Shown: positions 10,172 to 42,077, counted from the stretch's first letter. The stretch is DNA of 64,000 bases from Anaerolineae bacterium (GCA_040767155.1 JAXGPC010000005.1:390841-454840); one strand, 5' to 3'. The notes: generated by a model from the sequence alone, not told the origin. Translations and numbers: made by a program.

Positions 10172-10948
10172 ATGGACAGCAAGTTCGATCTCTCCGGGAA
10201 GGTGGCAGTGGTGACGGGGGCCCGGCAGGGGCTCGGCAAGACGTTCGCGCGTTCGCTGGCCCTTGCCGGTGCGACGGTGTATTTGATGTCGCGGGACGAG
10301 GCCGGCCTGGCAGAGACCGCCGGCGAGCTCGAGGCGTCGACCGGGCGCCGTTGCCCCTACCATCGCATCGATGTCACGGATGAGCGCAGTGTCGAGCGTG
10401 CCGCTCAGTTCGTGAAGGATGACGCTGGCAGGCTCGACATCCTGGTCAATAACGCCGCACTGGGCAGGGGAACCACGCCTTTGCAGGATCTGGACCTGGC
10501 GGAGTGGCATGCCACGATGGAGACCAACCTCACGGGGACCTTTCTGTGCATGAAGCATTTCTGCCGCATGATGATCGAGCAGCGCTCCGGCAAGGTGATC
10601 AACCTGGCCTCAATGGCCGGTATGATCGCGCTGCAGGATAGCTGTCTGGGCGCCTATGATTGCTCGAAGGCCGCCATCGAGTGCCTGACGCGCTGTATGG
10701 CAGGGGAGTGGGCCAAATACAACATCCAGGTCAATGCCATTGCCCCTGGATATTACCTGACCGACATCAACAAGGCCTACATCACCGAGCACCAGGGGTT
10801 CTACGAAAGGTCGCTCAGCCGGATCCCTATGGGCCGTTGGGGCGATCCCGATGCCATTGGCGAGGTGGCCGTGTTCCTGGCCTCTGCTGCTGCGGACTAC
10901 ATGACCGGCTCCACCATCGTCATCGATGGTGGCTACACAGCGTGGTGA
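10172..10948 (+). CDS. SDR family oxidoreductase
   Basis: TGARQGLG cofactor motif, NNAA motif and YxxxK catalytic motif (YDCSKAA). Confidence 0.85.
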   Translation: MDSKFDLSGKVAVVTGARQGLGKTFARSLALAGATVYLMSRDEAGLAETAGELEASTGRRCPYHRIDVTDERSVERAAQFVKDDAGRLDILVNNAALGRGTTPLQDLDLAEWHATMETNLTGTFLCMKHFCRMMIEQRSGKVINLASMAGMIALQDSCLGAYDCSKAAIECLTRCMAGEWAKYNIQVNAIAPGYYLTDINKAYITEHQGFYERSLSRIPMGRWGDPDAIGEVAVFLASAAADYMTGSTIVIDGGYTAW

Positions 10949-11659
10949 TTGGAGGTGATGATGAAAGACATCGACGGTGTTGGAAAGGTCGCTGCCATCG
11001 TGCTTGGCGGCGGACTGAAGGTGGTGACCCACGCGGGCCAGATCACCTACGAGCCTGAGGAGCAGGCCAAGGCGCGGCTCGACCGGGCCCTGGCGCTCTT
11101 CGAGGAGGGCAAGGTCGACGTCATCATCTCGACCGGCGACATCTCGCCCATGGCGGCGCGTGACCCAGCGGTGACCGGTCCCCGGACCGAGGCCGAAGTC
11201 GGGGTGCAGTATCTGCTCGCCAGGGCGGGGGAGGCGTCACCCGCGATGCGCCGGCGCCTCGAGGAGAGCATCTGCTATGAGGACCGGTCCATCGACACGA
11301 TCAGCAACGCCTGGTATGCGAAGAAGCGCTGCCTGGAGCCTCTGGGGATCACGGTGTGCATCGTCGTGACGTCGGATTACCATATCGCGCGGTCGCGCGT
11401 CATCTTCGAGTGGGTTCTGGGGCCGGGGTATACGGTGGAGACTGCCGAAGCGCCCTCGCCGCTCCGCGGCGCCGAGAGGGAGCAGCGCGATCGCTTCGAA
11501 GCCGCCCTGACCGACCATATGCGGAAGCATCTCTTTCCGGTCATCCCGGCGGGTGATGACGAAGCCATGGGGCACTATATGGAGAACGAGCACGCCAAGT
11601 TGTTCGCCGGCCTGGGCCCGGGCTTCGGCCCGCCCCCTGATCTGCCCAAGCCGGCGTGA
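10949..11659 (+). CDS. DUF218 / YdcF-like (ElyC/SanA family) protein
   Basis: Central VVTSDYHIARS motif and overall length typical of DUF218. Confidence 0.55.
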   Translation: MEVMMKDIDGVGKVAAIVLGGGLKVVTHAGQITYEPEEQAKARLDRALALFEEGKVDVIISTGDISPMAARDPAVTGPRTEAEVGVQYLLARAGEASPAMRRRLEESICYEDRSIDTISNAWYAKKRCLEPLGITVCIVVTSDYHIARSRVIFEWVLGPGYTVETAEAPSPLRGAEREQRDRFEAALTDHMRKHLFPVIPAGDDEAMGHYMENEHAKLFAGLGPGFGPPPDLPKPA

Positions 11660-15096: not shown

Positions 15097-16254
15097 CTAT
15101 CCCATGCCTTCGAGTATGTGCGTGATGATCGTGGCGCCGCTCCCGCCGATGTTCTGGGTCATGCCCAGCCGCGCGTTAGGAAGCTGGTTGGCCCCCGCCA
15201 ATCCACGCAACTGCAATACCGCTTCTACCACCTGATAGATACCAGTCGCCCCCACGGGATGGCCCCGTGCCTTCAAGCCGCCCATCGTCGCGATGGGCAC
15301 GCGCCCCTGCAGCGTGATCTCACCATCCAATGCCAGTTGAACGCCCTTGCCCCGTTCGGCAAACCCGGATGCTTCCAGGCTCAGTGCTGCCATAATCGTG
15401 AAGGCATCGTGCAACTCAAAGAAATCCAGGTCCTCAGGCTTGACATTCGCGAGCTGATACGCCTTGTGGGCAGAGGTCCGCGCAGCCTCCAACGCCAGCG
15501 GATCTTTGCGACTATGGACCGCCAGCGGCGCCATTCCTACAGCTGAGGCCCGGATCTTCACCGGTGCTGGGCTCAGCGCACGCGCATACTCTGCCGGCGC
15601 GAGCACAACCGCCGCTGCGCCGTCACAGACCGGCGAGGCGTCGAGCAATCCCACGGGCGTGGCAATGATCGGTGCGCGCGCATAAGCCTCTGCCGAGATC
15701 CGTGACTGGAACATCGCGTTGGGGTTGTTCACGCCGTTGGCATGTGCCGTTACCGCGAAGTTGGCGAAGTCCTCATGCTTCCACCCATACTCATACATAT
15801 AGCGCTGCATCAGCAGCGCGTTGAGGGCCACAAACGAGATCCCCTGGCCCGCCTCATATTCCGCATCTGCCGCGGCAGCTAACGCGGCCGTTGTTTCACG
15901 TCCGCCCGTATCCGTCATCTTCTCCACGCCGAGGGCGAGCACCAGGTTGGCCATCCCGCTGGCAACGGCCATTGTGCCAACCCGCAACGCCGCTGCGCCC
16001 GAGGCGCATGCGGCTTCTACCTTGAAGGCCTCGGTGTTCCCCAGCCCCATAAAGTCCACGGCGAGTGCGCCCAGTTGCGATTGCCCGGCAATCTCGCCGG
16101 AGAGCATGTTGCCCACGTACACTGCATCGACGGTCTCGATTGCGGCGTCTTGAAGCGCGCTCAGGCCCGCTTCGAGCATCAAATGGCGTATACCCGTCGT
16201 CCAGTGTTCGTCTACCGGGGTCTGCCCTATACCGATAATGGCTACGTCACGCAT
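15097..16254 (-). CDS. thiolase (acetyl-CoA C-acetyltransferase, archaeal type)
   Basis: VAIIGIGQTP N-terminus, thiolase-fold catalytic Cys region (AACASGAAAL) and C-terminal GHPVGATG motif. Confidence 0.85.
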   Translation of the reverse strand: MRDVAIIGIGQTPVDEHWTTGIRHLMLEAGLSALQDAAIETVDAVYVGNMLSGEIAGQSQLGALAVDFMGLGNTEAFKVEAACASGAAALRVGTMAVASGMANLVLALGVEKMTDTGGRETTAALAAAADAEYEAGQGISFVALNALLMQRYMYEYGWKHEDFANFAVTAHANGVNNPNAMFQSRISAEAYARAPIIATPVGLLDASPVCDGAAAVVLAPAEYARALSPAPVKIRASAVGMAPLAVHSRKDPLALEAARTSAHKAYQLANVKPEDLDFFELHDAFTIMAALSLEASGFAERGKGVQLALDGEITLQGRVPIATMGGLKARGHPVGATGIYQVVEAVLQLRGLAGANQLPNARLGMTQNIGGSGATIITHILEGMG

Positions 16255-16261
16255 CAGTCCT

Positions 16262-16335
16262 CGAATCGGCGAATCAGCGAATAAGCGAGAAAGCGAATCA
16301 GCGAAAAAAGCATCGCGGAATCAGCGAACTGGGAA
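16262..16335. repeat. tandem array of an about 8-bp GCGARWAR unit (gcgaatca/gcgaataa/gcgagaaa...)
   Basis: Seen directly in the HMGS-thiolase intergenic spacer. Same repeat family as the arrays at 58035-58093 and 58590-58662. Confidence 0.6.
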
Positions 16336-16367
16336 TCCTGGAGCTTCCTCTCCCCAATCATCAATCA

Positions 16368-17426
16368 CTAGTCCCGGAGTTTGCCGCGATAGCGAGTGTA
16401 GAGCGCATAGTCGATCTCGACGCGGCGCTTGATGTAGTCAGCGGTGTGCGGCACTTTGTCCTGGCAGGCTGTGATGCGCTCGGTCACTTCCCAGGCAAAG
16501 GCGTCCGAGCCCGCGCCGGACCCGAAGCTCACCAGCAGGATCCGGTCGCCCGGCTTGGCGATATCCAGCACCGCCGACAAACCTGTCAGTGATGCTCCTG
16601 CATACGTATTGCCAATGACGCCGCTCAAGAGGCCTGTCTCGATCTGCACATTGGTGAATCCCAGCCGCTCTGCGGCGCGCCCCGGGAACTTCACATTGGG
16701 CTGGTGGAAGATGGCGTAGGTGAAATCCTGCGCCGTCAGCGCCAACTCCTCCATCAGCGCGCGCCCAGCGGACTCGACATGGTGGAAATAGGCCGGCTCG
16801 CCCGTGAAGCGTCCCCCGTGGCTGGGGTAGTGCTGATACGCGCGCCGCCAGAAATCCGGGGTGTCGGTCACGTAGGAGAGCGATCCCATGCACACGGCAA
16901 CGGCGCGCTCCGCCGGCCCGATGATGAACGCGCTCCCACCGCTTGCAGCGGTGTACTCCAGCTCGTCGCCCGGGCGTCCCTGTGCCGTATCGGCGCCAAT
17001 CGCCAGCGCATAATCCCCCATTCCTGATCCCACGAGCCCCATCGCCGCCTGCAGTGCTTCGGTCCCGGCCTTGCAGGCGAACTCGAAGTCGCCTGCCAGT
17101 AGATACGGCGTTGCGCCGAGCGCCTCGGCGACGAGCGTCGCTGACGGCTTCACCGCATAGGGATGCGACTCGCTGCCCACCCAGATCGCACGCAGCGCCT
17201 CAGGCAGGATCTCGGCCCGCGCGATGGCGTTCCGTGCTGCCTCGATGGCGATCGTAATCGTATCCTCGTCCAGTCCCGCAACCGCCTTCTCGCGAACGGG
17301 GCCGCGACCGCCCCCGGTCCAGACCCTGGCAATCTCCGAGCCAGGCAGGCGATACATAGGCACATAGGCACCATACCCCACGATCCCCACTGCCCGTTGC
17401 GGTTTCATCAACCGAGCTTCAGTCAC
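16368..17426 (-). CDS. hydroxymethylglutaryl-CoA synthase (archaeal type)
   Basis: [11 protein letters not shown]-terminus and a short length (352 aa) typical of archaeal-type HMGS that partners with thiolase/DUF35. Confidence 0.85.
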
Positions 17427-17438
17427 ACAGTCCTCCTC

Positions 17439-18764
17439 TTATGAGGCGCTGTCTTTGTTCAACAACGACCGAGCGACATCGATGCGGATGGCACGACTCT
17501 CGACCATCGCTTGCGCGACGCGGTCGATATCGGCTCCCACCGCGCCTGCGGCCATCGCCACCTGGCGGGCGTGGAGTGCCATGTGTCCCTTCTGGATGCC
17601 CTCGGTGGCCAGTGCCCGCAGTGCGGCCAGGTTCTGCGCCAGTCCAACGCTTGCGACGACCATAGCCAGCTCACCGGCGTTCTGCACACCGAGGATCTTC
17701 AACGCGACCCGAGCCGTCGGGTGCACGCGTGTGGCCCCTCCAACCGTTCCGAGCGCCAGTGGCAGCTCCAGATGGCCCAGAAGACTGCCCTGTCGATCAC
17801 GGCGCCAGGTGCTCAGGCTCGTGTACCGCCCGCCGCGGGCGGCATAGGCATGGGCCCCTGCTTCCACTGCACGCCAGTCGTTACCGGTCGCCAACACGAC
17901 GGCATCTACGCCGTTCATAACGCCCTTGTTGTGGGTCGCCGCCCGATAGGGATCGGCAGCGGCGAAGGCCCAGGCTAACTCGATCCCATCGGCCACCTGC
18001 GCTCCGGTGAACGTCTCGAACGCCAGCGCATCCTCGGGGATTGTGACCCGTGCCCGCGCCAGGCGGTGGTCCGCCAGATTGCTCAGGATCCGCAGATACG
18101 GTGTCCCACCGGTCAGCGCGGCCAGCTCCGGTGCCAGTCGCTCACATGCCGTGTTCACGACGTTCGCGCCCATCGCATCGCGCACGTCGATCAACAGGTG
18201 TACGACCAGCATCGACCCTCTGGCAGTATCGAGGATGCGGACCTGGATATCCTGCGCGCCGCCTCCCAGGTCCACGAGCACGGGGTCCAGCGCATTGACT
18301 ATCGCCATCAGGCGCGCTCTGTCAGCGAGAATCGCATCGATCGCGGCATGGGGGTCGGGCAGATCGACCAACTGAACCTGGCCAATCATTACGGGAGCAT
18401 CCGCCTCAGCTATAAACCCACCACCACGGCGAGCCAGCCTGGCGGCGAAGGATGCGCCCGCGACGACCGAGGGTTCCTCGATCACCATTGGCACCAACAC
18501 GTCGCGGCCGTTCACGACGAAGTTCGTGGCAATACCCAGGGGCAGTGCATAGCGGCCCACGGCGTTCTCGACCATGGCATTCGCCCGGTCGAGGCTCAAC
18601 CCCATTCCTTCGCTGAGGAGGTCGGCTTCCTCGTCCGACAGGACAACCTGCTCCCGGATCAAGGTGATACGTTCCTGAACCGTGAGTGTATAGAATCCGC
18701 TCAGTCGCGACGTCGGTTTTGATGGCATAAAGGGCGTTACGTGGACTCCTAGCGAGAAAATCAT
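17439..18764 (-). CDS. mvaA: hydroxymethylglutaryl-CoA reductase (class II-like)
   Basis: DAMGAN(V)VNT and EEPSVVAG motifs. Coupled to the HMGS gene downstream (12-nt gap). Confidence 0.9.
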   Translation of the reverse strand: MIFSLGVHVTPFMPSKPTSRLSGFYTLTVQERITLIREQVVLSDEEADLLSEGMGLSLDRANAMVENAVGRYALPLGIATNFVVNGRDVLVPMVIEEPSVVAGASFAARLARRGGGFIAEADAPVMIGQVQLVDLPDPHAAIDAILADRARLMAIVNALDPVLVDLGGGAQDIQVRILDTARGSMLVVHLLIDVRDAMGANVVNTACERLAPELAALTGGTPYLRILSNLADHRLARARVTIPEDALAFETFTGAQVADGIELAWAFAAADPYRAATHNKGVMNGVDAVVLATGNDWRAVEAGAHAYAARGGRYTSLSTWRRDRQGSLLGHLELPLALGTVGGATRVHPTARVALKILGVQNAGELAMVVASVGLAQNLAALRALATEGIQKGHMALHARQVAMAAGAVGADIDRVAQAMVESRAIRIDVARSLLNKDSAS

Positions 18765-18958
18765 AGCATAAGCCTCCTCTCAAAAGCTATCAGGTCTCGA
18801 TTTCTAACCTTTATCAGTCCTAGATGCGAAGCCTCAGACGTACGAAAGTTCCTCTGCTCCACATGATCTTGCTTTATTCGCCGTTTCGGGATATTCTCGG
18901 CAGAAGTGCAGCAGATCGGACTATTGCCGACAGAAACCTGCAGGGAGCGGCGCCTACT

Positions 18959-20797
18959 GTGTTACGCGAACTACACATCGAGGACTTCGCCATCATTGAT
19001 GAGCTCCATCTCACGCTGGAGCCGCGCTTCAACATCCTCACCGGCGAGACAGGTGCCGGCAAGTCCATCTTGATCGACGCAGTCACGCTCATGCTGGGCG
19101 AGCGTGCGGATACGACGTCTTTGCGCCAGGGCGCTGAGAGTGGGCGGGTTGAGGGTATGTTCGTCCTGTCGCCAACGCTGCAGGCCGCGATTGGCCCGAT
19201 CCTCGAGCGCGAAGGGCTCGAAGGCGATGCCCCGGACACGCTCTGGCTGGCGCGCGAACTGCGCAGTTCCGGGCGAACCGTTGCCCGCGTTAACGGACGT
19301 GCTGTGTCGGTCTCGCTGCTGCGCGAAATCGCCGAGAAGCTCGTTGACGTCCACGGCCAGAGCGAGCACCTCAGCCTGCTTCGCGTTCGCGAACACCTCA
19401 GTCTCCTTGATCGCTTTGCGCGCCTGGAGTCCCTGGCTACCCGTGTTGCCGAGCTTGTGGCTCGGATCCGCACGATCCGGCGTGAGCTGGCCCAGTTGCT
19501 CGGAAATGAGCGCGAGCGCATGCAGCGCATTGACCTGTTGCGCTTTCAGGTCGAGGAGATCCGTAGTGCAACCCTCAAGCCGGGTGAAAGGGAGGCCCTG
19601 GAGTCGGAGCTAACCCGGCTGACGAACGCCGAGCAGCTAGCTACCCTGGCAGCCGGTATCGTCGCGCGACTGGAGGAGGGCGGGGAACGTTCTGTAGCCG
19701 TTCTGGACCTCGTGGGGCGCAGCCAGAAGGACATGGCGTCCCTGGTCAGGATTGACGCGAGCCTCGAGCCCCAGAGCCGGATTCTGGATGAGATCGGATA
19801 TCAGGTCGAGGACCTGGCACGGACCTTGCGCGACTATGCCACCGCGGTCGAGTTCAATCCCAAGCGCCAGGCCTGGGTTGAGGAGCGTCTGATTCTGCTG
19901 CGCCATCTGGAGCGCAAGTACGGCGGGGACATTGCCGACATCCTGGCCTTTGCAGAGCGCGCGGCTGCCGATCTGGCTGCACTGGAGCACAGCGACGAGC
20001 GGATCGCCGAGCTTCAGGAGACCGAATCAGAGCTGCTGCGCGACTGTTCTGCGTTGTGCCTGGAGCTGTCGCACAGGCGGCGGGAGGCAGCTCAGGAGCT
20101 GGCAAGAGCTGTCGAGGTCGAGCTCAATGACCTGCGGATGGCGGGTGCCCGGTTTGGCGTTGCCTTTCGCAGCGATCCGGCCGAAGACGGCATTCCCCTC
20201 GAAACACCGCTCCCGCAGGCCCTGTTTGTCACAAGCACAGGCATCGAGATCGACGATGCAACGCCGGTCCGCCGATCCGCGTTCGATGCCACCGGGATGG
20301 ACCGGGTGGAGTTCTTGGTGGCCCCCAATGTGGGCGAGGGGCTCAAGCCGTTGGTCCGGATCGCCTCAGGTGGCGAGACCGCGCGGCTGATGCTGGCCCT
20401 CAAGACCGTGCTATCCAGAGCCGACCGAACCCCAACCCTGATCTTTGATGAGATCGACCAGGGGATTGGCGGGCGCATTGGAACGGTCGTCGGAGCCAAG
20501 TTGTGGCGGTTGACCGCCAAGGCCACCGAGGAGGACCCGGGCCATCAGGTGCTGTGCATCACGCATCTGCCACAGTTGGCTGGCTTCGGAGATGTGCATT
20601 ACCGGGTGGCCAAAGAGGTCGTGGAGGGCCGCACGGTGACCCATGTGACGCCCTTGCCGCCTGAGGAGCGTGTGGTCGAGCTGGCGCAGATGTTGGGCAC
20701 CAATGGCGCGGCTGCGGTGCGCGGGGCGCATGAGATTCTCGAGCAAGCTGCCGCGACGAAGACCCGGTTGGGTGGTCTCCAACCCAATGATTGCTGA
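18959..20797 (+). CDS. recN: DNA repair protein RecN
   Basis: LRELHIEDFAIIDELHLTLEPRFNILTGETGAGKSIL Walker A N-terminus, coiled-coil middle region and ABC-signature C-terminus. Start moved to GTG at 18959, preceded by GGAG. Confidence 0.9.
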   Translation: MLRELHIEDFAIIDELHLTLEPRFNILTGETGAGKSILIDAVTLMLGERADTTSLRQGAESGRVEGMFVLSPTLQAAIGPILEREGLEGDAPDTLWLARELRSSGRTVARVNGRAVSVSLLREIAEKLVDVHGQSEHLSLLRVREHLSLLDRFARLESLATRVAELVARIRTIRRELAQLLGNERERMQRIDLLRFQVEEIRSATLKPGEREALESELTRLTNAEQLATLAAGIVARLEEGGERSVAVLDLVGRSQKDMASLVRIDASLEPQSRILDEIGYQVEDLARTLRDYATAVEFNPKRQAWVEERLILLRHLERKYGGDIADILAFAERAAADLAALEHSDERIAELQETESELLRDCSALCLELSHRRREAAQELARAVEVELNDLRMAGARFGVAFRSDPAEDGIPLETPLPQALFVTSTGIEIDDATPVRRSAFDATGMDRVEFLVAPNVGEGLKPLVRIASGGETARLMLALKTVLSRADRTPTLIFDEIDQGIGGRIGTVVGAKLWRLTAKATEEDPGHQVLCITHLPQLAGFGDVHYRVAKEVVEGRTVTHVTPLPPEERVVELAQMLGTNGAAAVRGAHEILEQAAATKTRLGGLQPNDC

Positions 20798-20896: not shown

Positions 20897-21745
20897 ATGG
20901 CGCTTAAAGGTAAGCTTGAGGACTTTGGGATCACCCAACTGCTAAATCTCATCAACCTGGCCCGCAAGACCGGCACGCTCTATCTGGACCAGCCGGACCA
21001 GGAAGCTTATCTATGCTTTCGTGAGGGAAGCCTGATCTATGCGACCATGGCGGGTGTCGATGACTACCTACCGGGGATCTTGCAGCGCGCGGGTGTTTTC
21101 ACCGCCGACCACGTCAAGATGATCCGAGACAATATGCCTGGCAAGTCAGCTCAGGATATCGCCCGGGTTCTGATCACCAGCGGACGCCTCAAGCAACAAG
21201 TTGTCCTTGCCCATGTACGCCAGCATGTCGTCGACATTGTGTATCAGGTGTTTTCCTGGAACCATGGGACGTTCCGGTTCGAACCTTCTGAGCTGCCGGT
21301 CCAGGGCAAGATCACTACGTCCATCGCGCTCGAGAACCTCATCATCGAGGGCAATCGGCGGCTCAAGGAATGGGAGTTGCTGTGCGACGAGCTCCCTGAT
21401 CTCGATATCACGCTGAAATTCGCCGAGCGACCTTCGACCCCACTGCGCGACATCAATCTGAGCGTTGAAGAGTGGCGCGTCATCTCCTTCATCAACCCAC
21501 GCAACTCTATCCGCCAGATCGCTCATTACAACAACATGGATGAGTTGCAGATCCGAAAGATCGTCTATGGGCTGTTGCAGGCGGGGCTCGTCGAGATGAT
21601 CCGCCCTGCACAACCCGCTGCTCCCCGGGCTGCCAAGCCCGATGCGCCTGCCGCCGAGAAACAACCCAGCGCATCGCAGATGAAACGTCCCGCGGTGAAG
21701 CGCAGCATCATCCAGAGGCTGATCCGGCGCATCCGGGAGCTGTGA
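20897..21745 (+). CDS. PATAN domain (DUF4388) protein
   Basis: N-terminal LEDFGITQLLNLINLARKTGTLYL is the DUF4388/PATAN signature. First gene of a nine-gene coupled operon. Confidence 0.7.
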   Translation: MALKGKLEDFGITQLLNLINLARKTGTLYLDQPDQEAYLCFREGSLIYATMAGVDDYLPGILQRAGVFTADHVKMIRDNMPGKSAQDIARVLITSGRLKQQVVLAHVRQHVVDIVYQVFSWNHGTFRFEPSELPVQGKITTSIALENLIIEGNRRLKEWELLCDELPDLDITLKFAERPSTPLRDINLSVEEWRVISFINPRNSIRQIAHYNNMDELQIRKIVYGLLQAGLVEMIRPAQPAAPRAAKPDAPAAEKQPSASQMKRPAVKRSIIQRLIRRIREL

Positions 21746-21748
21746 TGC

Positions 21749-22294
21749 ATGCAGACTCTGAAAATCGTTGTCACCGGTCCCTTCTCCTCGGGCAAGACAG
21801 AGTTCATTCAGGCTGTCAGCGAAATCGACGTCGTCTCTACCGAACGCAAGATCACGCGTAAGTCGGAGCGCATCAAAGATCAGACGACCGTTGCGATGGA
21901 CTTCGGTCGCATCACCATCGATGAGGAGTTGATCCTCTACCTGTTCGGAACCCCCGGACAACGCCGGTTCGACTTCATGTGGGAGATCCTGTCGGAGGGC
22001 ATGTTGGGGTTTGTGGTGATGGTGGATAGCACGCGACCGGAGACTTTTCGCGAGGCGCGGCGTATTCTGGACACGTTTCGCAGCTATTCCCCCGTGCCCT
22101 ATCTCGTGGCGGCCAACAAACAGGACCTGGACGATGCGTGGCCTGCCGATGATCTGCGTATCGTGTTGCGTGTCGACCCCGACGTCAAGGTGGTCCCGTG
22201 CGTGGCGAAGGACAAGGAATCCGTCAAAAGTGTCCTTCTCGAGCTCCTGTATGCGATCCTGGAGCTGGTTGAGGTTGAGGCAGAGGAAGTCTAG
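21749..22294 (+). CDS. small Ras-like GTPase of the conservon CvnD / MglA-like family (ATP/GTP-binding protein)
   Basis: KIVVTGPFSSGKTEF P-loop, TTVAMDFGRI switch region, LYLFGTPGQRRFDFMW (DxxG) and ANKQD (NKxD). Strongly resembles Streptomyces CvnD. The stop/start context is TGAtgcATG, so the two genes are coupled. Confidence 0.75.
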   Translation: MQTLKIVVTGPFSSGKTEFIQAVSEIDVVSTERKITRKSERIKDQTTVAMDFGRITIDEELILYLFGTPGQRRFDFMWEILSEGMLGFVVMVDSTRPETFREARRILDTFRSYSPVPYLVAANKQDLDDAWPADDLRIVLRVDPDVKVVPCVAKDKESVKSVLLELLYAILELVEVEAEEV

Positions 22295-22297
22295 ACT

Positions 22298-23086
22298 ATG
22301 AGCTCCATCGTCACCGAGAGGGGCATCGTTCACTATGAGACCTTTGGCCGGGGCCAGCCGGTTGTCCTGCTGCATTGCTGGCTCGGCTCGTGGAACTACT
22401 GGATGTCGACCATGGAGTTCCTGGCCGGGCACAAGTTCAAGACCTATGCCCTGGATTTCTGGGGTTTTGGCGAGTCGGCTAAACAGGGCGCCTTCTCCGT
22501 CGATGAGTACGTGGAGATGGTCGATCAATTCATGGAACGGATGGGGCTGGCTACAGCGCACGTGATGGGGCACTCGATGGGGGGAACTGTGTCGCTATCC
22601 CTGGCTCTCGCGCATCCTCAGCGCGTTTCGAAGGTAGCCGTCGTTGGTTCGCCCATCGTGGGTTCGGGGCTGAGCTTGCTGCTCAAGGCTGCCGGGTATC
22701 GTTCAGTTGCCAGGTTGCTCTACGGCATCCCCGGTGTGCTCCCGGCGTTGTTGAAGGTACTTTCTGTCACCTATGCCCGGGATGCGCGCAGGCTCTGGGG
22801 GTTATTGCGCGACGACATCTCACGCACGACGGTCGATTCCTTCTCCCGCAGCATCGGTGACCTGCGGCGCACCGATCTGCGGCCCCGGCTGCGCGAATGC
22901 CGTGTGCCCGCAATGGGCATCTATGGACGTAAGGACAACATCGTCAACCCAAAGCAAGGCGAGCTGTTGCGTGCCGGGATCGCAACCCATACTCTACACA
23001 CCTTCGAGGGCTCGGGTCATTTCCCGATGCTCGATGAGACCCAACGCTTTCACAACGCGATCCTGAGTTTTCTGGCGGAGACGTGA
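22298..23086 (+). CDS. alpha/beta hydrolase (intact catalytic triad)
   Basis: GHSMGG nucleophile elbow and a C-terminal GHFPM histidine. Confidence 0.8.
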   Translation: MSSIVTERGIVHYETFGRGQPVVLLHCWLGSWNYWMSTMEFLAGHKFKTYALDFWGFGESAKQGAFSVDEYVEMVDQFMERMGLATAHVMGHSMGGTVSLSLALAHPQRVSKVAVVGSPIVGSGLSLLLKAAGYRSVARLLYGIPGVLPALLKVLSVTYARDARRLWGLLRDDISRTTVDSFSRSIGDLRRTDLRPRLRECRVPAMGIYGRKDNIVNPKQGELLRAGIATHTLHTFEGSGHFPMLDETQRFHNAILSFLAET

Positions 23087-23730
23087 GCGTTGATCCTGCT
23101 TATCGCAACGCCTGTTTTCCGAACAGGATCTCGCGCATCCTGCTTCTGGCGCTTCAGGACGTCCTGGGGGCGAATGGCAGCAGCGCTGTTCTGACGACGG
23201 CCAAGCTTCCACAATATGTAGCTACGCTGCCCCCCGCCGATTTCGAGCCAGGACTGACTTTCTCCGAGATTGGGCGCCTCTTCGAGGCCCTCGAGAGCAT
23301 TTACGGTGTACAGGCTGGTGACCGGCTGGCCAAGCAGGCTGGTCGGGAGAGCTTCAAGTACTGGATCGAAGGTTTGGGCGGGCTTGTCAGTTTCGCCGAT
23401 GTGCTATTGTGCTTTCTCCCGCTATCCTTACGGGCCAGGATCGGGGTGGAGGTAGTGGCCGAGATCATCAACCGCTATACCGATGAACGTCTGGTTCTTG
23501 GCGAAAGCCACGACCAGTATCTTGTGAAAGTCGAGACCTGTGGACTCTGTGCGGGGCGCAGAACCGATATCCCGGCGTGCGGCTATATGCAGGGCACCCT
23601 GGATGAGTTGTTGTTTTGGGTGAGCCGGGGGCGCCGGTTCACCATCCGGGAGACGGCCTGCATCGCTCTCGGAGATCCGGCCTGCGTCTTTGCTATCGAC
23701 AAGGTTCCGCCATCGTCTGCGGGGGCATAA
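23083..23730 (+). CDS. V4R (4-vinyl reductase-like) domain protein
   Basis: C-terminal ETCGLCAGRRTD.PACGYMQGTLDE block with paired cysteines, typical of V4R/BchJ-like small-molecule-binding domains. Overlaps the previous gene by 4 nt. Confidence 0.55.
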   Translation: MSVDPAYRNACFPNRISRILLLALQDVLGANGSSAVLTTAKLPQYVATLPPADFEPGLTFSEIGRLFEALESIYGVQAGDRLAKQAGRESFKYWIEGLGGLVSFADVLLCFLPLSLRARIGVEVVAEIINRYTDERLVLGESHDQYLVKVETCGLCAGRRTDIPACGYMQGTLDELLFWVSRGRRFTIRETACIALGDPACVFAIDKVPPSSAGA

Positions 23731-23733
23731 GCG

Positions 23734-24987
23734 ATGCGTAAGGTCATCCTGCGAGACAGGCGCAAGATTCCTCCCTTCAACGAGCCCGCGCGCGAGTTGA
23801 GTGTGCTGACCAAGCCCTTGTGGCTGCACCAGCGTGACGTCCTGGCCCGCTATACGACCGAGGAACACGAGGTCGACTCTCTGGAGCAGATCAAAGCAGG
23901 TCCGGTGGAGATGTTGGTCCACCGCGACAACCTTTACTTCGATGCCGAGTTCATCGACGAGTTCGTGCGACGTGCACGTGCTTTGGGCAAAGCATGTCGG
24001 GTCGCTTTCTCGCTCGACGATCGTGCCATCAATGGCCATGCGATCTATCTCCAGGAAGGTATCCAACGGGAAGGTCAGCACTACGTTGCCGATCTCTGGT
24101 ATTTCCCTCACGGCGTCGAACCGGATGCCAGCCCGCTGGTCATCGATACCGAACCTCGCGAGGTGGGGTTCTACCACGTGCCCACCCATATGGCGAATCC
24201 TTATGGTGATCTCGTGTACGACTTGCCCACCAAGCCCTTTCTCTCCATCGAACACTGGGTGCACGTTCTCCACGCCAATGTCGATTTCGGCATCTTCGCG
24301 ATTGGCGCACGCTTTGAACGTGATGCGGAGAGGAACGTGGGGCTGAACCTGAGACTCCTCTGGCGTGGCATGGTCGAGCGAAAACAGGTCCTGACCACTT
24401 CGGCGTTGGTGAAGATTGGCAAGAACTGTAGCATCGATCCGACTGCTACGATCCAGGGTCCGGCATTCATCGGCAACAATGTCTTCATCGGTGCGGGGGC
24501 GGTTGTCGGCAATTGCACCATCGGCGATAATGTAACCATCGATCAGGGGTGCCAGTTGATGCTGAGCGTGGTGGGCAATGGCTCGTTCCTGCCGTTCCGT
24601 GCGGCGCTCTATCGCTCGGTGTTGATGGAGAACTGTATCCTGGCACAGAACTCTTGCCTGCAGATGACCGTAGTCGGGCGAGGATCGTTCATAGGTGCCG
24701 GGAACACGTTCACCGACTTCAACCTGGTGGATCGACCGGTGCGATCGTATTTCAAGGGGACTCTGCAGGATACGGGGATGACGGCATTGGGCGGAGCCGT
24801 AGGGCACAACGTGCGCATCGGGTCAGGGATGGTCATCTTCCCGGCCCGGATGATCGACTCCGACGTCATCCTCTTTGCAACGCCGGATCGGCGTGTGGTT
24901 CGTAAGAATGTCCTCTGGGAGGACAGTGACCACCTGGGGCTTGAGAACGGGGAGAGCCTACATCCCCGACTCTATCCCCGGGACTGA
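23734..24987 (+). CDS. left-handed beta-helix (hexapeptide-repeat) protein with a 220-aa N-terminal domain of unclear function
   Basis: The C-terminal half contains repeated [LIV]G hexapeptides (IGKNCSIDPTATIQGPAFIGNNVFIGAGAVVGNCTIGDNVTIDQ). The N-terminus begins KVIL like sugar-nucleotidyltransferases but lacks the GGxGTR loop. Confidence 0.6.
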   Translation: MRKVILRDRRKIPPFNEPARELSVLTKPLWLHQRDVLARYTTEEHEVDSLEQIKAGPVEMLVHRDNLYFDAEFIDEFVRRARALGKACRVAFSLDDRAINGHAIYLQEGIQREGQHYVADLWYFPHGVEPDASPLVIDTEPREVGFYHVPTHMANPYGDLVYDLPTKPFLSIEHWVHVLHANVDFGIFAIGARFERDAERNVGLNLRLLWRGMVERKQVLTTSALVKIGKNCSIDPTATIQGPAFIGNNVFIGAGAVVGNCTIGDNVTIDQGCQLMLSVVGNGSFLPFRAALYRSVLMENCILAQNSCLQMTVVGRGSFIGAGNTFTDFNLVDRPVRSYFKGTLQDTGMTALGGAVGHNVRIGSGMVIFPARMIDSDVILFATPDRRVVRKNVLWEDSDHLGLENGESLHPRLYPRD

Positions 24988-25021
24988 TGGGGCTCTATTG
25001 TTATAAGGCAGGAGGTAAGCG

Positions 25022-25912
25022 ATGAGCGCTGGTCGCATCCTGGTGGTCGAAGACGATGCTGATATCTCCAATATGCTGCAGCTCTATTTCAAGGCGCAGG
25101 GGTATGAGGTTTCTGTAGCCCTGCGCGGTCTGGACGCTCTGGATGCGACGCGGCAGAAGATGCCCAATGTGATCGTGCTGGACATTATGCTCCCCGACAT
25201 TGATGGCTATGAGGTCTGCCGGCGATTGCGCACGAATCTGCGAACCAGCCACATCCCGATTATCTTTCTGACACAGAAGGATGAGCGGAGTGACCGGATT
25301 CGGGGTCTCGAACTTGGTGCGGACGATTACATTACCAAGCCCTTCGATGTTGAGGAGTTGCGCCTGCGCGTTCGCAACACTATTACAAGCGCTGAGGTTG
25401 CCAGCTTGACCAGCCCATCCACGGGGTTGGCGAGTGGCAAGCTGATCGAGCAGCAACTGCGCGCGCTGCTCCGGGCCGAGAAGTGGGGGATCCTCTACAT
25501 TGGTATCAGGGGGCTGGAGGCATTCAATCAGGCCTACGGTTTCGTTGCGGGGCAGGATGTTCTGCGCTTCACGGGTATGATCCTGAATGCCGCGGTCGAC
25601 GAGGTGGGCACTGACAATGATTTCACCGGTCACATTGGCAGCGACGACTTCATCGTGGTCACCGGCGCCGACAAGGTGGACCACTTGCGCGATGTTATCC
25701 GCCAGAGGTTCGACAAGGATGTGGGCACGCACTATGACTTTATGACCCGGATGCAGGGCTATCTGGTGGTGAAGGATGACGCAGGCAACGACATTCAGAC
25801 GCCACTGATGCGATTGGCAATCGGAGCGCTCACGTCCGATGACGGTCCGTTCACCGATATCCGAGAGATCACGGAGGCTGCAGCCGAAGCCAGGCGTCGC
25901 GATAGCATGTAG
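25022..25912 (+). CDS. response regulator, REC domain plus degenerate GGDEF domain (GSDDF)
   Basis: REC domain with the phospho-acceptor Asp in VLDIMLPD. The GGDEF-like domain carries GSDDF instead of GG[DE]EF and has a degenerate upstream metal-binding block. Confidence 0.8.
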   Translation: MSAGRILVVEDDADISNMLQLYFKAQGYEVSVALRGLDALDATRQKMPNVIVLDIMLPDIDGYEVCRRLRTNLRTSHIPIIFLTQKDERSDRIRGLELGADDYITKPFDVEELRLRVRNTITSAEVASLTSPSTGLASGKLIEQQLRALLRAEKWGILYIGIRGLEAFNQAYGFVAGQDVLRFTGMILNAAVDEVGTDNDFTGHIGSDDFIVVTGADKVDHLRDVIRQRFDKDVGTHYDFMTRMQGYLVVKDDAGNDIQTPLMRLAIGALTSDDGPFTDIREITEAAAEARRRDSM

Positions 25913-25967
25913 CGCCTGGGCGCCTGTTCCCAGATCGTCCCTCAGAAGCTGGAAGGGAAGTTGTCGT

Positions 25968-26345
25968 ATGCTCAAAATCCTGATTGCTGAAGATGAACGC
26001 GACATCCGCGAACTGATCTCATTCACCCTTCAGTTCGCTGGGTACGAGGTTGTCTCGGTTCAGAATGGGGCTGAGGCGGTCGAGCAGGCGTTGGCGACCC
26101 AACCCGATCTCATCCTGCTCGACGTGCGTATGCCCAAGATGACCGGCTATCAGGCGTGTGAGGCGCTCAAAGCGTCGCCCGAGACGAGGGATATCCCGGT
26201 CCTTTTTCTCTCTGCCAAGGGCCAGGAGTCCGAGATCCGTCAGGGGTTCGAGGCTGGGGCCATCGACTACATTCTGAAGCCCTTCTCGCCTGATGAACTC
26301 ACTGCACAGGTCAAACGCGCTCTGGCCCCTTCGGACCAGACATAG
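25968..26345 (+). CDS. single-domain response regulator receiver (CheY-like)
   Basis: ILIAEDERDIREL...LLDVRMPKMTGY...DYILKPF. Start reassigned to ATG 25968, preceded by GGAAGGGAAG. Confidence 0.8.
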   Translation: MLKILIAEDERDIRELISFTLQFAGYEVVSVQNGAEAVEQALATQPDLILLDVRMPKMTGYQACEALKASPETRDIPVLFLSAKGQESEIRQGFEAGAIDYILKPFSPDELTAQVKRALAPSDQT

Positions 26346-26363
26346 GTATCGCTGTGGAGCCCC

Positions 26364-27152
26364 ATGAGCGCTCTGGTTGTCGACAATAGCCTGGTACATT
26401 ACGAGGTGCTCGGTCGTGGTCGACCGCTGCTATTCCTTCATGGGTGGTTGGGCTCCTGGCGCTATTGGGTGCCCACGATGATCGAGCTCTCGTCCTCACA
26501 CCGGGCCTATGCCCTGGACTTCTGGGGCTTTGGGGATTCGGACAGAGTTCCCTCGAGATATGACCTGCCCGGGTACACGGATCAGGTCGCTGCCTTTCTC
26601 GATCAACTGGGGATTGGTCGATTGCCCATCATAGGCCACGGGCTCGGCAGCGCCGTGGGACTCACCCTTGCACGGGACCACCCTGAGTGCGTCGAACAGG
26701 TCATGGCTATCAGCTTACCTCTGACCGGCGCTCACATTGGGCGGGCCTTGAGCACCTTCGGCGGTGGGGAGAATGCTGCCCGGGCGGTGCTTGGGCGCCG
26801 GATCAAGTCCTATGACGAGGTTGACATCGAGGCGGCGAAGACGGAGGGCGCGGCGGTGGTGCAGAGCGTACGTTCCGTTGCTGATCAGGACATCGGTGCG
26901 CTGCTTCGTGATAGTGCTGTCCCGGTTCTTCTCGTTGCAGGTGCAGACGACCCGATCGTCCAACCGCCGGATGATGCACTGGCGGCAAACCTGAGTGCGC
27001 ACGTTCACTCGATCGTCTTCGATGGCGTGCAGCACTACCCGATGCTTGAGCAATCGAGCAAGTTCTGCCGGCTGTTGCGCGATTTTCTCACCTATCAGGA
27101 CGACTGGGATAGAATGCAGCTTAAGGATGAATGGAAGCGCCGCATGCGCTAA
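26364..27152 (+). CDS. alpha/beta hydrolase paralog lacking the nucleophile serine (pseudo-hydrolase)
   Basis: About 45% identical to the 22298-23086 product over the first 130 aa (LVHYEVLGRGRPLLFLHGWLGSWRYW...). The nucleophile elbow reads GHGLG instead of GHSMG; the histidine is retained. Confidence 0.75.
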   Translation: MSALVVDNSLVHYEVLGRGRPLLFLHGWLGSWRYWVPTMIELSSSHRAYALDFWGFGDSDRVPSRYDLPGYTDQVAAFLDQLGIGRLPIIGHGLGSAVGLTLARDHPECVEQVMAISLPLTGAHIGRALSTFGGGENAARAVLGRRIKSYDEVDIEAAKTEGAAVVQSVRSVADQDIGALLRDSAVPVLLVAGADDPIVQPPDDALAANLSAHVHSIVFDGVQHYPMLEQSSKFCRLLRDFLTYQDDWDRMQLKDEWKRRMR

Positions 27153-27158
27153 GGCGAT

Positions 27159-27923
27159 ATGAAGAAAAGCACAGAATCGGATCCCTGGGCTATGGGACTG
27201 ACCATGCGCGCACTGGTGTTGGTCGCGTTTGTGGCGGCCTTTGCCGTTCCTGCCGGACTTGTGCCCATCGTCGCTGTTGCGACCGATGCCGAGGGTGTGT
27301 CAGAGGAGTCCGAGGGGTTGGTGGTCATTCCACTCAGTACTGCCACGCCTGTGGCGACATCAGTACCTGTGTCTACCCCGACGCCCACGGTCCCGCGCGT
27401 GGGGATCATTGCCGGTCATACAGGCAGCGACAGTGGGGCGGTCTGCCCTGATGGCCTTCAGGAAGTCACCATCAATGACAATGTTGCGCGCCAGGTTGTG
27501 GCGATTCTGTCGGCTCGCGGGTGGTCGGTCATGCAGTTGGAGGAGTTTGATGCGCGCCTGACGGGGTATACGGCGGATGCTCTGGTGTCGATCCATGCAG
27601 ATTCCTGTACCCTTGTGGATCGGTCAGGCTATAAGGTGGCTCGGGCCGAATCGAGCTCGATTCCCGATGCAGAGGACCGGTTGACTGCTTGCCTGAGCCA
27701 GCGTTACGGTGAGCATACGGGCATCCCGTTTGATCCCCACACGATCACGTACGATATGCGGCGATACCATGCCCTATACGAGATCAACCCCAATACGCCC
27801 GCAGCGATCATTGAGACCGGCTTTATGTCGGGTGATCGGGAGCTGCTTACCGAGCGCTCCGACGTCGTCGCACGTGGCATTGCCGATGGCCTGATCTGTT
27901 TCATCGAGGGCGAATCTCCCTGA
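27159..27923 (+). CDS. N-acetylmuramoyl-L-alanine amidase (Amidase_3 family), secreted or membrane-anchored
   Basis: N-terminal TM/signal region, then IIAGHTGSDSGA...NDNVARQVVAIL...LVSIHADS. Separated by 6 nt from the previous gene. Confidence 0.7.
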   Translation: MKKSTESDPWAMGLTMRALVLVAFVAAFAVPAGLVPIVAVATDAEGVSEESEGLVVIPLSTATPVATSVPVSTPTPTVPRVGIIAGHTGSDSGAVCPDGLQEVTINDNVARQVVAILSARGWSVMQLEEFDARLTGYTADALVSIHADSCTLVDRSGYKVARAESSSIPDAEDRLTACLSQRYGEHTGIPFDPHTITYDMRRYHALYEINPNTPAAIIETGFMSGDRELLTERSDVVARGIADGLICFIEGESP

Positions 27924-27951
27924 GTGTCTTTTTGCGTCTGCCGCAGGCGGT

Positions 27952-27980
27952 TTGATTTGCCGTACTGTCTGGGGTAGAAT
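27952..27980 (+). promoter_or_regulatory. candidate promoter TTGATT-17-TAGAAT upstream of ssb
   Basis: Canonical spacing; followed by AAAGGAG and the ssb ATG 57 nt downstream. Confidence 0.35.
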
Positions 27981-28037
27981 GTAGCCCATAGGTACTCCTC
28001 TGCAGTGTCTTGCCGGAATCCGAAAGGAGTTGTACGC

Positions 28038-28463
28038 ATGTCTTACCAGAAGGTGATCATTGTTGGGAATCTGGGGCGTGACCCCGAGATGCGCTACACC
28101 CCCGATGGGACGCCCGTAACGTCCTTCAGCGTCGCAACCAATCGTCGATGGACGAACCAGGATGGCTCGCAGGGGGAAGAGACGGTGTGGTTTAGGGTCT
28201 CGGCTTGGCGCAAGCAGGCTGAGGTCGCCGCTAACTATCTGACCAAGGGGCGCCAGGTCATGGTTGAGGGGCGGATGACTGCTGACAAGGCGACCGGTGG
28301 TCCACGTATCTGGACAGGTCAGGATGGCACGCCTCGGGCAAGCTATGAGATGATTGCTGATCGGATTGTTTTCCTTGGTACCCGCGCCGAGGCAACGTCG
28401 GGTGCTGGTGGTGACGAGGCGGGAGGGCCCGATTTTGTCCCTGAGGATGAAATACCCTTCTAA
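28038..28463 (+). CDS. ssb: single-stranded DNA-binding protein
   Basis: KVIIVGNLGRDPEMRYTPDGTPV OB-fold start and an acidic C-terminal tail ending DEIPF. Start moved to the ATG preceded by AAAGGAG. Confidence 0.9.
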   Translation: MSYQKVIIVGNLGRDPEMRYTPDGTPVTSFSVATNRRWTNQDGSQGEETVWFRVSAWRKQAEVAANYLTKGRQVMVEGRMTADKATGGPRIWTGQDGTPRASYEMIADRIVFLGTRAEATSGAGGDEAGGPDFVPEDEIPF

Positions 28464-28536
28464 GTAGCTGCACACCGTGGCGCGTTGGCGACAGAGGGGA
28501 TCCTTCCCCTCTGTCGTTTTCTACCGAAGGAGATCT

Positions 28537-28854
28537 ATGTCACAGCCCAAACCGCGATCGATCAACATCGAGCTTCCTGCCGATCTGGACCCGACCTATG
28601 CGAACTTCGCGGTCATTTCACATACACCTTCCGAGGTGATCTTCGACCTGGCCCAGCTGCTTCCCAATCAGCCGAAGGTGCGCGTGCGTACCCGGGTGGT
28701 CATGACGCCGCTCAATGCAAAGCTGATGCTGCGAGCTCTCGAGGAGAATCTGGCCAAGTATGAAGCGGCGTTTGGCGAGATTGTGGTTCCTGGCCACGGC
28801 GACGATCTCATTCGGTCGTTCTTCGGCGGGAAGATCCCGCCTGAAACGGAGTAG
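28537..28854 (+). CDS. DUF3467 domain protein
   Basis: INIELPADLDPTYANFAVISHTPSEVIFD...RVVMTP..AK.L..AL.EN..KYE matches DUF3467. Start at the ATG preceded by GAAGGAG. Confidence 0.65.
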   Translation: MSQPKPRSINIELPADLDPTYANFAVISHTPSEVIFDLAQLLPNQPKVRVRTRVVMTPLNAKLMLRALEENLAKYEAAFGEIVVPGHGDDLIRSFFGGKIPPETE

Positions 28855-42034: not shown

Positions 42035-42077
42035 GTAATTGGAAGACCAATGCCGGCAGTGTTTGAAGGAGGATATT

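Follow-up and report, generated by a model that had tools for sequence, protein, structure and literature searches.

A window of 64,000 nucleotides of DNA from an Anaerolineae bacterium (GCA_040767155.1 JAXGPC010000005.1:390841-454840; "the window" designates this whole stretch) contains an operon encoding two paralogous alpha/beta-fold proteins, which we call ABH1 and ABH2. ABH1 has the features of a canonical serine hydrolase, whereas in ABH2 the nucleophilic serine is replaced by a glycine. The loss of this serine is ancient, conserved and under purifying selection. Since the serine was lost long ago, the rest of the site is kept, and a gene for a single receiver domain (REC) immediately precedes the ABH2 gene in 80 of the 80 genomes examined, a signalling component is most likely, not a broken enzyme. 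Our preferred reading is that ABH2 is probably an old, conserved and non-hydrolysing component of a two-component branch, i.e. a ligand reader or an adaptor.

Both open reading frames lie on the + strand, at the positions given in Table 1, and each encodes 262 amino acids. The initial annotation had described them as a paralogous pair aligning over their N-terminal halves. The relationship is real, but the match spans the whole proteins: BLASTP aligns residues 1-259 of ABH1 with residues 1-242 of ABH2, with 32% identity, 53% positives and an E-value of 2e-44. An ABH1 ortholog (P0133, E 5.9e-32) also appears within the approximately 130 best matches of ABH2 among the 1.84 billion representative sequences searched. 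Both proteins pass the Pfam gathering scores for Abhydrolase_1 and Abhydrolase_6; for Abhydrolase_1 the bit scores are 111 for ABH1 (E 9.6e-32) and 78.6 for ABH2, with a cut-off of 25.8.

The elbow motif is GHS93MGG in ABH1 and GHG93LGS in ABH2, and all the alignments and models agree on the position of Gly93. In the pairwise BLASTP it lies opposite Ser93, the nucleophile of ABH1. In HMMER alignments with solved structures it faces the serine of Est816 (GNSIGG) and that of 3kxp (GHSLGA), as well as the aspartate of 8hgu (GHDVGA), an epoxide-hydrolase-like protein. A MAFFT alignment of 242 sequences, 240 of them homologs, puts Gly93 on the nucleophile column. AlphaFold models of ABH1 and ABH2 both have a strand at residues 87-92 followed by a helix at residues 94-105; residue 93 thus forms the strand-turn-helix elbow in both proteins. 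This bears out the Ser-to-Gly replacement that had been annotated.

The sole serine near the elbow of ABH2 is Ser96. In the 81 species-level orthologs defined below this position is occupied by G (43), A (36) or S (2), i.e. by Gly or Ala in 79 of them. Thus Ser96 cannot be a displaced nucleophile, and we rejected this candidate; Gly93 is confirmed as the elbow residue. The same 81 sequences revealed no other ABH2-specific conserved Ser, Cys or Asp near the elbow, Asp27 being found in only 23 of them. When the features of a serine hydrolase are considered together (a nucleophile in an elbow of the form Sm-x-Nu-x-Sm-Sm, an acid and a histidine), ABH2 has the acid and the histidine without the nucleophile, while ABH1 and every ortholog covering the sites have all three. 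The C-terminal histidine, which was said to be retained in ABH2, is indeed present (His224, corresponding to His241 of ABH1), and so is the acid (D196, corresponding to D213), which had not been mentioned. With this set of residues, ABH2 cannot be expected to form an acyl-enzyme.

To describe the conservation of the elbow two sets of sequences were used. The 120 best ABH2 homologs are 48-99% identical to it and come from Anaerolineae metagenome genomes. These orthologs and the window protein have 107 Gly, 14 Ala and 0 Ser at the elbow, with the histidine in 121/121 and the aspartate in 115/121. The second set comes from a species-level scan (one genome per species), in which at least 578 genomes have an ABH2 relative. 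The best 80 of these genomes all belong to Chloroflexota, class Anaerolineae, and include the cultured Anaerolinea thermolimosa; with the window protein they give 81 orthologs. Their elbow residue is G in 47, A in 24, S in 7 and T in 3. On a neighbour-joining tree of these 81 sequences the elbow changes state at least 10 times, and the Ser-bearing orthologs are nested inside Ala clades. Meanwhile H26, W28, H92, G95 and H224 are present in 81/81, D196 in 79/81 and L94 in 78/81, and 48 positions are at least 95% conserved. The catalytic site of ABH2 thus appears frozen save for its nucleophile, which may be any small residue. The annotation of an active enzyme with a dead paralog holds as regards a canonical hydrolase and its nucleophile-less partner, but the word "dead" says more than the residues do, His, Asp and the oxyanion residues being invariant.

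For comparison, GHSMGG is found in all of the 120 ABH1 sequences, out of 121, that cover the elbow, with Asp and His in 121/121. In the wider ABH2 family clustered at 50% the elbow counts are G80, S41, A21, D5 and T2, ABH1-like and truncated sequences being included in these counts. Position 27, in the oxyanion motif, is Cys in ABH1 (Cys27, 22376-22378; LHCW in 116/121); in ABH2 it is Gly in 58/81 and Asp in the remaining 23.

These data decide on one alternative, namely that ABH2 is a duplicate in decay or without function, or that its glycine is a sequencing or strain accident. The missing serine is the only point in its favour. Relative to its closest relative (L012), ABH2 has a ratio of nonsynonymous to synonymous substitutions (dN/dS) of 0.095 at a dS of 0.82; that of ABH1 is 0.052. 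ABH2 is also full-length in the at least 578 species genomes mentioned above, and its elbow state is the same in relatives that are 99%, 85% and 76% identical. This conservation refutes a functionless relic and rules out a pseudogene or an assembly artefact, so that we give this alternative almost no weight.

The gene order conserved in relatives is PatA_N, MglA-like GTPase, ABH1, V4R, hexapeptide-repeat protein, REC-degenerate GGDEF, (multi-GAF kinase), REC and ABH2. All genes of the window between 20897 and 27923 point in the same direction and are separated by -4 to 55 bp. In most Anaerolineae, a multi-GAF histidine kinase of 930-3500 amino acids is encoded between the two receiver genes (e.g. 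L007:5148-9575, L011:6763-9558 and L010:1-9538), often together with a Shikimate_DH-like gene. The kinase gene is missing in the window, where a 55-bp spacer is found (25912-25968), and in its closest relatives L012 (86%) and L009 (76%). A search elsewhere in the window for a multi-GAF kinase found none: the 1346-residue reading frame at 42039-46079 consists of TPR repeats. Since the operon genes are still under strong purifying selection, either some other source provides the kinase or this branch does without one. The REC-ABH2 adjacency holds in operon variants with kinases of this whole size range, and it is likewise found in those devoid of the kinase gene (the window, L009 and L012). In most lineages the V4R gene comes after that of ABH1; in a clade resembling Caldilineaceae (L068, L075, L077, L078, L083, L085, L087 and L090) it comes directly after ABH2, at about 100-500 bp. 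V4R is thus linked to both hydrolase-fold proteins. The MglA-like GTPase, PatA_N, the two receiver proteins, the multi-GAF kinase of the relatives and the constant REC-ABH2 pair all support a signalling context, and by its gene content the operon serves signalling rather than catabolism.

This organisation also bears on whether ABH2 could be a regulatory or scaffold subunit of ABH1, in a dead/active heterodimer that would adjust the activity of ABH1 to the phosphorelay according to a "prozyme" logic. The two are close paralogs in one operon, and they share a conserved N-terminal region of about 60 residues (VHYE, GRG-P, LH-WLGSW-YW, YALDFWGFG) that is a possible common interface. However, these motifs are mostly generic to alpha/beta hydrolases (HG, DxxGxGxS), and it is with the REC gene that the ABH2 gene is associated in every genome of the set, not with that of ABH1. 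Moreover, the ABH1 and ABH2 genes stand as much as 10 kb apart, with a very large kinase gene in between, and the two halves of the operon appear separable in some genomes. We consider such a heterodimer quite improbable.

The AF2 models have a mean predicted local distance difference test (pLDDT) value of 92.4 for ABH2 and 86.5 for ABH1, and both superimpose on solved hydrolases with template modelling (TM) scores of 0.8-0.87. The fold matches of ABH2 are esterases, enol-lactonases, meta-cleavage-product hydrolases and the lactonase AidH (TM about 0.8, about 22% identity); the best ones of ABH1 are the enol-lactonase 2xua and the hydrolase 3om8 (TM 0.85-0.87). As the fold, the elbow geometry, the oxyanion residues and the His-Asp pair are kept, ABH2 should still have a pocket. 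In the MAFFT alignment its lid is about 16 residues shorter than that of ABH1, and some members of the ABH2 family have 70-240 extra residues in the lid region, their matches being split around residue 121. The C-terminal tail of ABH2 (Table 1) is present in 79 of the 80 genome orthologs. W257 and R259 are found in 81/81 sequences, R260 in 80/81 and K254 in 77/81. Residues 256-262 have a pLDDT below 50, so the tail is predicted to be disordered in an otherwise confident model; were ABH2 to dock by a peptide, this tail would be the evident candidate.

Some relatives of ABH2 have a Gly elbow with His and Asp kept in the context of fusions, either to TIR (P0293, P0340, P0334) or to CHAT (P0313) domains (loci L092, L093). 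In these fusions the Gly elbow is incompatible with a conventional serine hydrolase, and a role in sensing or regulation would suit the domain. The fusions prompted us to consider an anti-phage defence function for the operon, which was rejected: PADLOC gave no match for ABH1, ABH2, V4R, the GTPase, PatA_N or the hexapeptide protein, and only weak receiver-domain matches for both RECs. One Anaerolineae genome has tandem ABH2 genes (L024:10001-10771 and 10814-11566), the second being about 50% identical to the ABH2 of the window. A link to bacteriochlorophyll (BchO/BchJ) was rejected as well: with the NCBIfam models the scores are 44.4 (ABH1) and 41.5 (ABH2) vs a cut-off of 172.55 for bchO, and 31.8 (V4R protein) vs 74.3 for BchJ.

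ABH2 could still be an enzyme that does without a covalent nucleophile, the His224-Asp196 pair acting as a general base towards water or the substrate and the oxyanion hole polarising a carbonyl. Alpha/beta-fold decarboxylases, lyases and cofactor-free oxygenases work in the absence of a covalent nucleophile, and tomato methylketone synthase 1 works with an Ala at the elbow. The adaptation of the alpha/beta fold to oxygenolytic catalysis, the subject of PMC10548524, counts in the same direction, as do the strong purifying selection on ABH2 and the (near-)invariance of His224 and Asp196 together with H26, W28, H92, L94 and G95. Yet an elbow drifting among G, A, S and T would be unexpected in a finely adjusted active site. 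The neighbourhood is one of signalling throughout, without metabolic genes from which a substrate could come. Finally, the feature specific to ABH2 is its disordered basic tail and not a new catalytic residue, Asp27, near the oxyanion hole, occurring in too few orthologs to be a general replacement. We regard a nucleophile-free enzyme as possible though unlikely.

If ABH2 is instead a non-hydrolysing signalling component, it would bind an ester- or lactone-like small molecule without cleaving it, or sit empty. Its occupancy would be relayed, probably via the disordered basic tail, either to the multi-GAF kinase or to the REC encoded just upstream. ABH1 would be a working hydrolase of the esterase/lactonase type, its translation being coupled to that of the Cys-rich, ligand-binding V4R protein, and the two would produce, trim or degrade ligands of the class read by ABH2. 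ABH2 on one side, ABH1 and V4R on the other, would then constitute a "reader plus eraser/processor" pair. In this scheme we infer the binding of a ligand, the contact with REC, the role of the tail and the sharing of a ligand by ABH1, ABH2 and V4R. That the operon senses a small hydrophobic ligand, as initially suggested, is plausible. A bolder version, which we put forward only tentatively and do not expect to hold in full, would make ABH2 a new class of response-regulator partner: a pseudo-hydrolase reader holding a small ester or lactone signal in a pocket intact but for the nucleophile, docked by its tail on a CheY-like receiver, with ABH1 and V4R as eraser/processor, which would join a phosphorelay to an MglA-like GTPase across Anaerolineae.

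Several points weigh against a signalling function for ABH2. The invariance of His224 and Asp196 exceeds the need of pure binding and would equally fit catalysis. The adjacency of the REC and ABH2 genes shows a functional link, not a physical contact. In A. thermolimosa (L086), there is no match for ABH1, V4R or the hexapeptide protein in the approximately 1.7 kb covered upstream of the REC-GGDEF gene, and in the gene list of PMC8756737 the DUF4388, GTPase, MhpC and glmU genes of this bacterium come next to one for nitrite reductase. The ABH1-V4R and REC-ABH2 halves may therefore stand at separate loci in some genomes, a possibility that weakens the idea of a shared ligand. Our literature search on the ABH2 family and the operon returned this gene list only, and no functional work.

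The annotation had likened the pair to receptor-type hydrolases such as RsbQ or the KAI2/D14 class. The idea of a receptor agrees with the signalling context and the ligand-binding neighbour, but the analogues named were not the right ones. RsbQ, known from the RsbQ-RsbP-PAS module of Bacillus subtilis and 45 homologous modules, needs an intact triad for signalling (PMC3183031). There is a likeness in layout: a small alpha/beta-fold protein is encoded beside a ligand-binding or signalling partner, as are ABH1 and V4R by overlapping genes, and the RsbQ-PAS modules are linked to kinases, cyclases or phosphatases. The "reader plus eraser" logic proposed above would thus be comparable to that of an RsbQ hydrolase with its PAS module. 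However, RsbQ keeps Ser-Asp-His and a PAS domain lies at the N terminus of its partner, whereas the partners here would be V4R for ABH1 and a stand-alone REC for ABH2, which has no nucleophile; Pfam detects no PAS domain in the window genes. As for D14 and KAI2, they are alpha/beta hydrolases of similar fold that act as small-molecule receptors, but their ligand is hydrolysed by an intact triad; ABH2 would form no acyl-enzyme and has no F-box-type partner.

Sequence and fold comparisons point the same way. By sequence ABH1 has the Ser-Asp-His triad, ABH2 lacks the Ser, and neither RsbQ, D14 nor KAI2 is among the best 60 PDB sequence matches of either protein, out of totals of 282 and 264. The 50 best fold matches of ABH2 include none of the three, and those of ABH1 include a single KAI2-like chain (rank 47, 16% identity, TM 0.80). 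Since these receptors keep their triad, are not close by sequence or fold and have other partners, ABH2 is not a member of their family, and the analogy is a loose one.

Non-catalytic alpha/beta-fold proteins are known in animals: the neuroligins, with a Gly at the elbow, ABHD5/CGI-58 and the NDRG family. The structure of NDRG2 is presented in PMC3069448. In these proteins, as proposed for ABH2, the fold remains under selection after the loss of a triad residue and the action is exerted by partner binding. They are nevertheless eukaryotic members of unrelated subfamilies, have mostly lost more than one triad residue and are not known to be connected with two-component systems, while ABH2 keeps the His, the Asp and the oxyanion hole. 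Another comparison is provided by the engineered AidH S102G (4g8b/4g8d), one of the best structural matches of ABH2, with a TM of 0.81: it carries the same Ser-to-Gly change and, according to the entry title, holds an N-acyl-homoserine lactone uncleaved. Being an active enzyme mutated in the laboratory, and 22% identical to ABH2, it speaks for feasibility only and is silent on the natural ligand.

Non-catalytic homologs of enzymes are well documented in eukaryotes; to our knowledge, there are few descriptions of them as constant members of signalling operons in bacteria. The most fitting view of ABH2 is that of such a homolog acting in signalling, notable for its strict coupling to REC and for the conservation of everything but the nucleophile. 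If the bolder version above is true, the hydrolase and its nucleophile-less copy would share out the destruction and the perception of a signal. The analysis also draws attention to a widespread uncharacterised operon with an MglA-like GTPase, PatA_N, V4R and a multi-GAF kinase, in Chloroflexota, which are abundant in sludge, sediments and hot springs and whose filament behaviour is poorly understood.

Table 1. Positions of the operon features and of the ABH1 and ABH2 site residues in the window
Feature	Position	Strand	Description
PatA_N / DUF4388 (PATAN) protein	20897..21745	+	First operon gene; Pfam PF14332, E 1.6e-27
MglA-like small GTPase	21749..22294	+	Pfam ATP_bind_1, Ras, Arf; P-loop GPFSSGKT, TPGQ for DxxG, NKQD
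ABH1	22298..23086	+	Canonical alpha/beta-fold serine hydrolase; Pfam Abhydrolase_1
ABH1 catalytic codons	Ser93 22574-22576 (TCG), Asp213 22934-22936, His241 23018-23020	+	From the sequence
V4R-domain protein	23083..23730	+	GTG start overlaps ABH1 stop (GTGA); Cys cluster
Left-handed beta-helix (hexapeptide-repeat) protein	23734..24987	+	Pfam Hexapep, LbH_EIF2B; sub-threshold GlmU-type matches
REC-GGDEF response regulator	25022..25912	+	Receiver Asp54 and degenerate GGDEF, GSDDF at ~25637-25651; Pfam
Single-domain REC	25968..26345	+	Asp52; start = ATG of MLKILIAEDE; Pfam Response_reg, residues 47-158 of a longer reading frame
ABH2	26364..27152	+	Nucleophile-less alpha/beta-fold paralog of ABH1
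ABH2 site codons	Gly93 26640-26642 (GGG), Asp196 26949-26951, His224 27033-27035	+	From the sequence
ABH2 C-terminal tail KDEWKRRMR	27123..27149	+	Consensus L-x-L-K-E-E-W-K-R-R-x-R; absent from ABH1
N-acetylmuramoyl-L-alanine amidase (Amidase_3)	27159..27923	+	Pfam PF01520; 6 bp after ABH2
Terminator-like hairpin and T-rich tail	27935..27949	+	Likely operon end; position alone suggestive

Among the other genes of the operon, that of PatA_N occupies the same position in L007, L011 and L012-L014. The motifs of the GTPase are kept in 7 orthologs, with GTPGQ in 7/7; a Thr replacing the Asp of DxxG is presented as a hallmark of MglA in PMC3000849. No Roadblock gene was found within the window, and in L011 a gene of 123 residues located after the GTPase gene (1576-1947) gives a weak Robl_LC7 match, below the cut-off (E 0.0011). 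In Streptomyces the conservon associates the kinase-like sensor CvnA, the Roadblock protein CvnB, CvnC and the GTPase CvnD. The operon would resemble it by a sensor kinase, an ATP_bind_1 small GTPase and, if the weak L011 match is considered, a Roadblock protein, but the conservon is not known to contain alpha/beta hydrolases, V4R, PatA_N or a hexapeptide protein.

The V4R protein reported in the initial annotation is indeed part of the operon, with its conserved Cys cluster and its start overlapping the ABH1 stop, but its Pfam match (PF02830) is marginal, at 31.8 bits vs a cut-off of 31, and covers only the C-terminal 58 residues. C153, C156, C166, C193 and C201 are kept in 26-34 of 34 orthologs. 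TRAPPC3/Bet3, a subunit of a Rab exchange factor, belongs to the V4R fold family. The Cys cluster is comparable to the four-Cys Zn site known in PoxR and Thor-TRAPPC3, and the V4R and TRAPPC3 folds enclose cavities with phenol derivatives or palmitate (PMC10933270). The MglA-type GTPase, V4R, the eIF2B-epsilon-like hexapeptide protein and the weak Roadblock match in L011 recall parts of eukaryotic GTPase regulators; V4R with a small GTPase and a possible Roadblock would echo the parts list of TRAPP and Ragulator.

The hexapeptide protein is kept in the operon among relatives, and its N-terminal region of about 220 residues has no family match. In 54 orthologs of the REC-GGDEF protein the commonest GGDEF variants are GGDDF, GGDNF, SDNDF and GSDDF. 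As none of the variants listed has a Glu in fourth position, this protein is probably not a cyclase, and it is likely the second pseudo-enzyme of the operon. The best 120 homologs of the single-domain REC are 69-98% identical to it.

The Amidase_3 gene follows that of ABH2 in many relatives, not in all. Because it starts 6 bp past the ABH2 stop, this cell-wall hydrolase may be co-transcribed with the operon. A run of genes for Amidase_3, SSB and DUF3467 (27159-28854) follows ABH2 in many Anaerolineae (L003, L007, L008, L009). As terminator-like sites are no more numerous in the region than chance would give, only the position of the hairpin beyond the amidase gene is suggestive.

Elsewhere in the window, some translations were assigned by eye: a gene that looks RecN-like (18824-20797) lies just upstream of the operon, and three adjacent genes on the - strand (15097-18764) look thiolase-, HMG-CoA synthase- and HMG-CoA reductase-like, and would form a mevalonate trio. 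The reading frame made mostly of TPR repeats (42039-46079, + strand) lies in a stretch of unusually strong positive GC skew, of 0.14-0.18, and is overlapped by long reading frames on the opposite strand.

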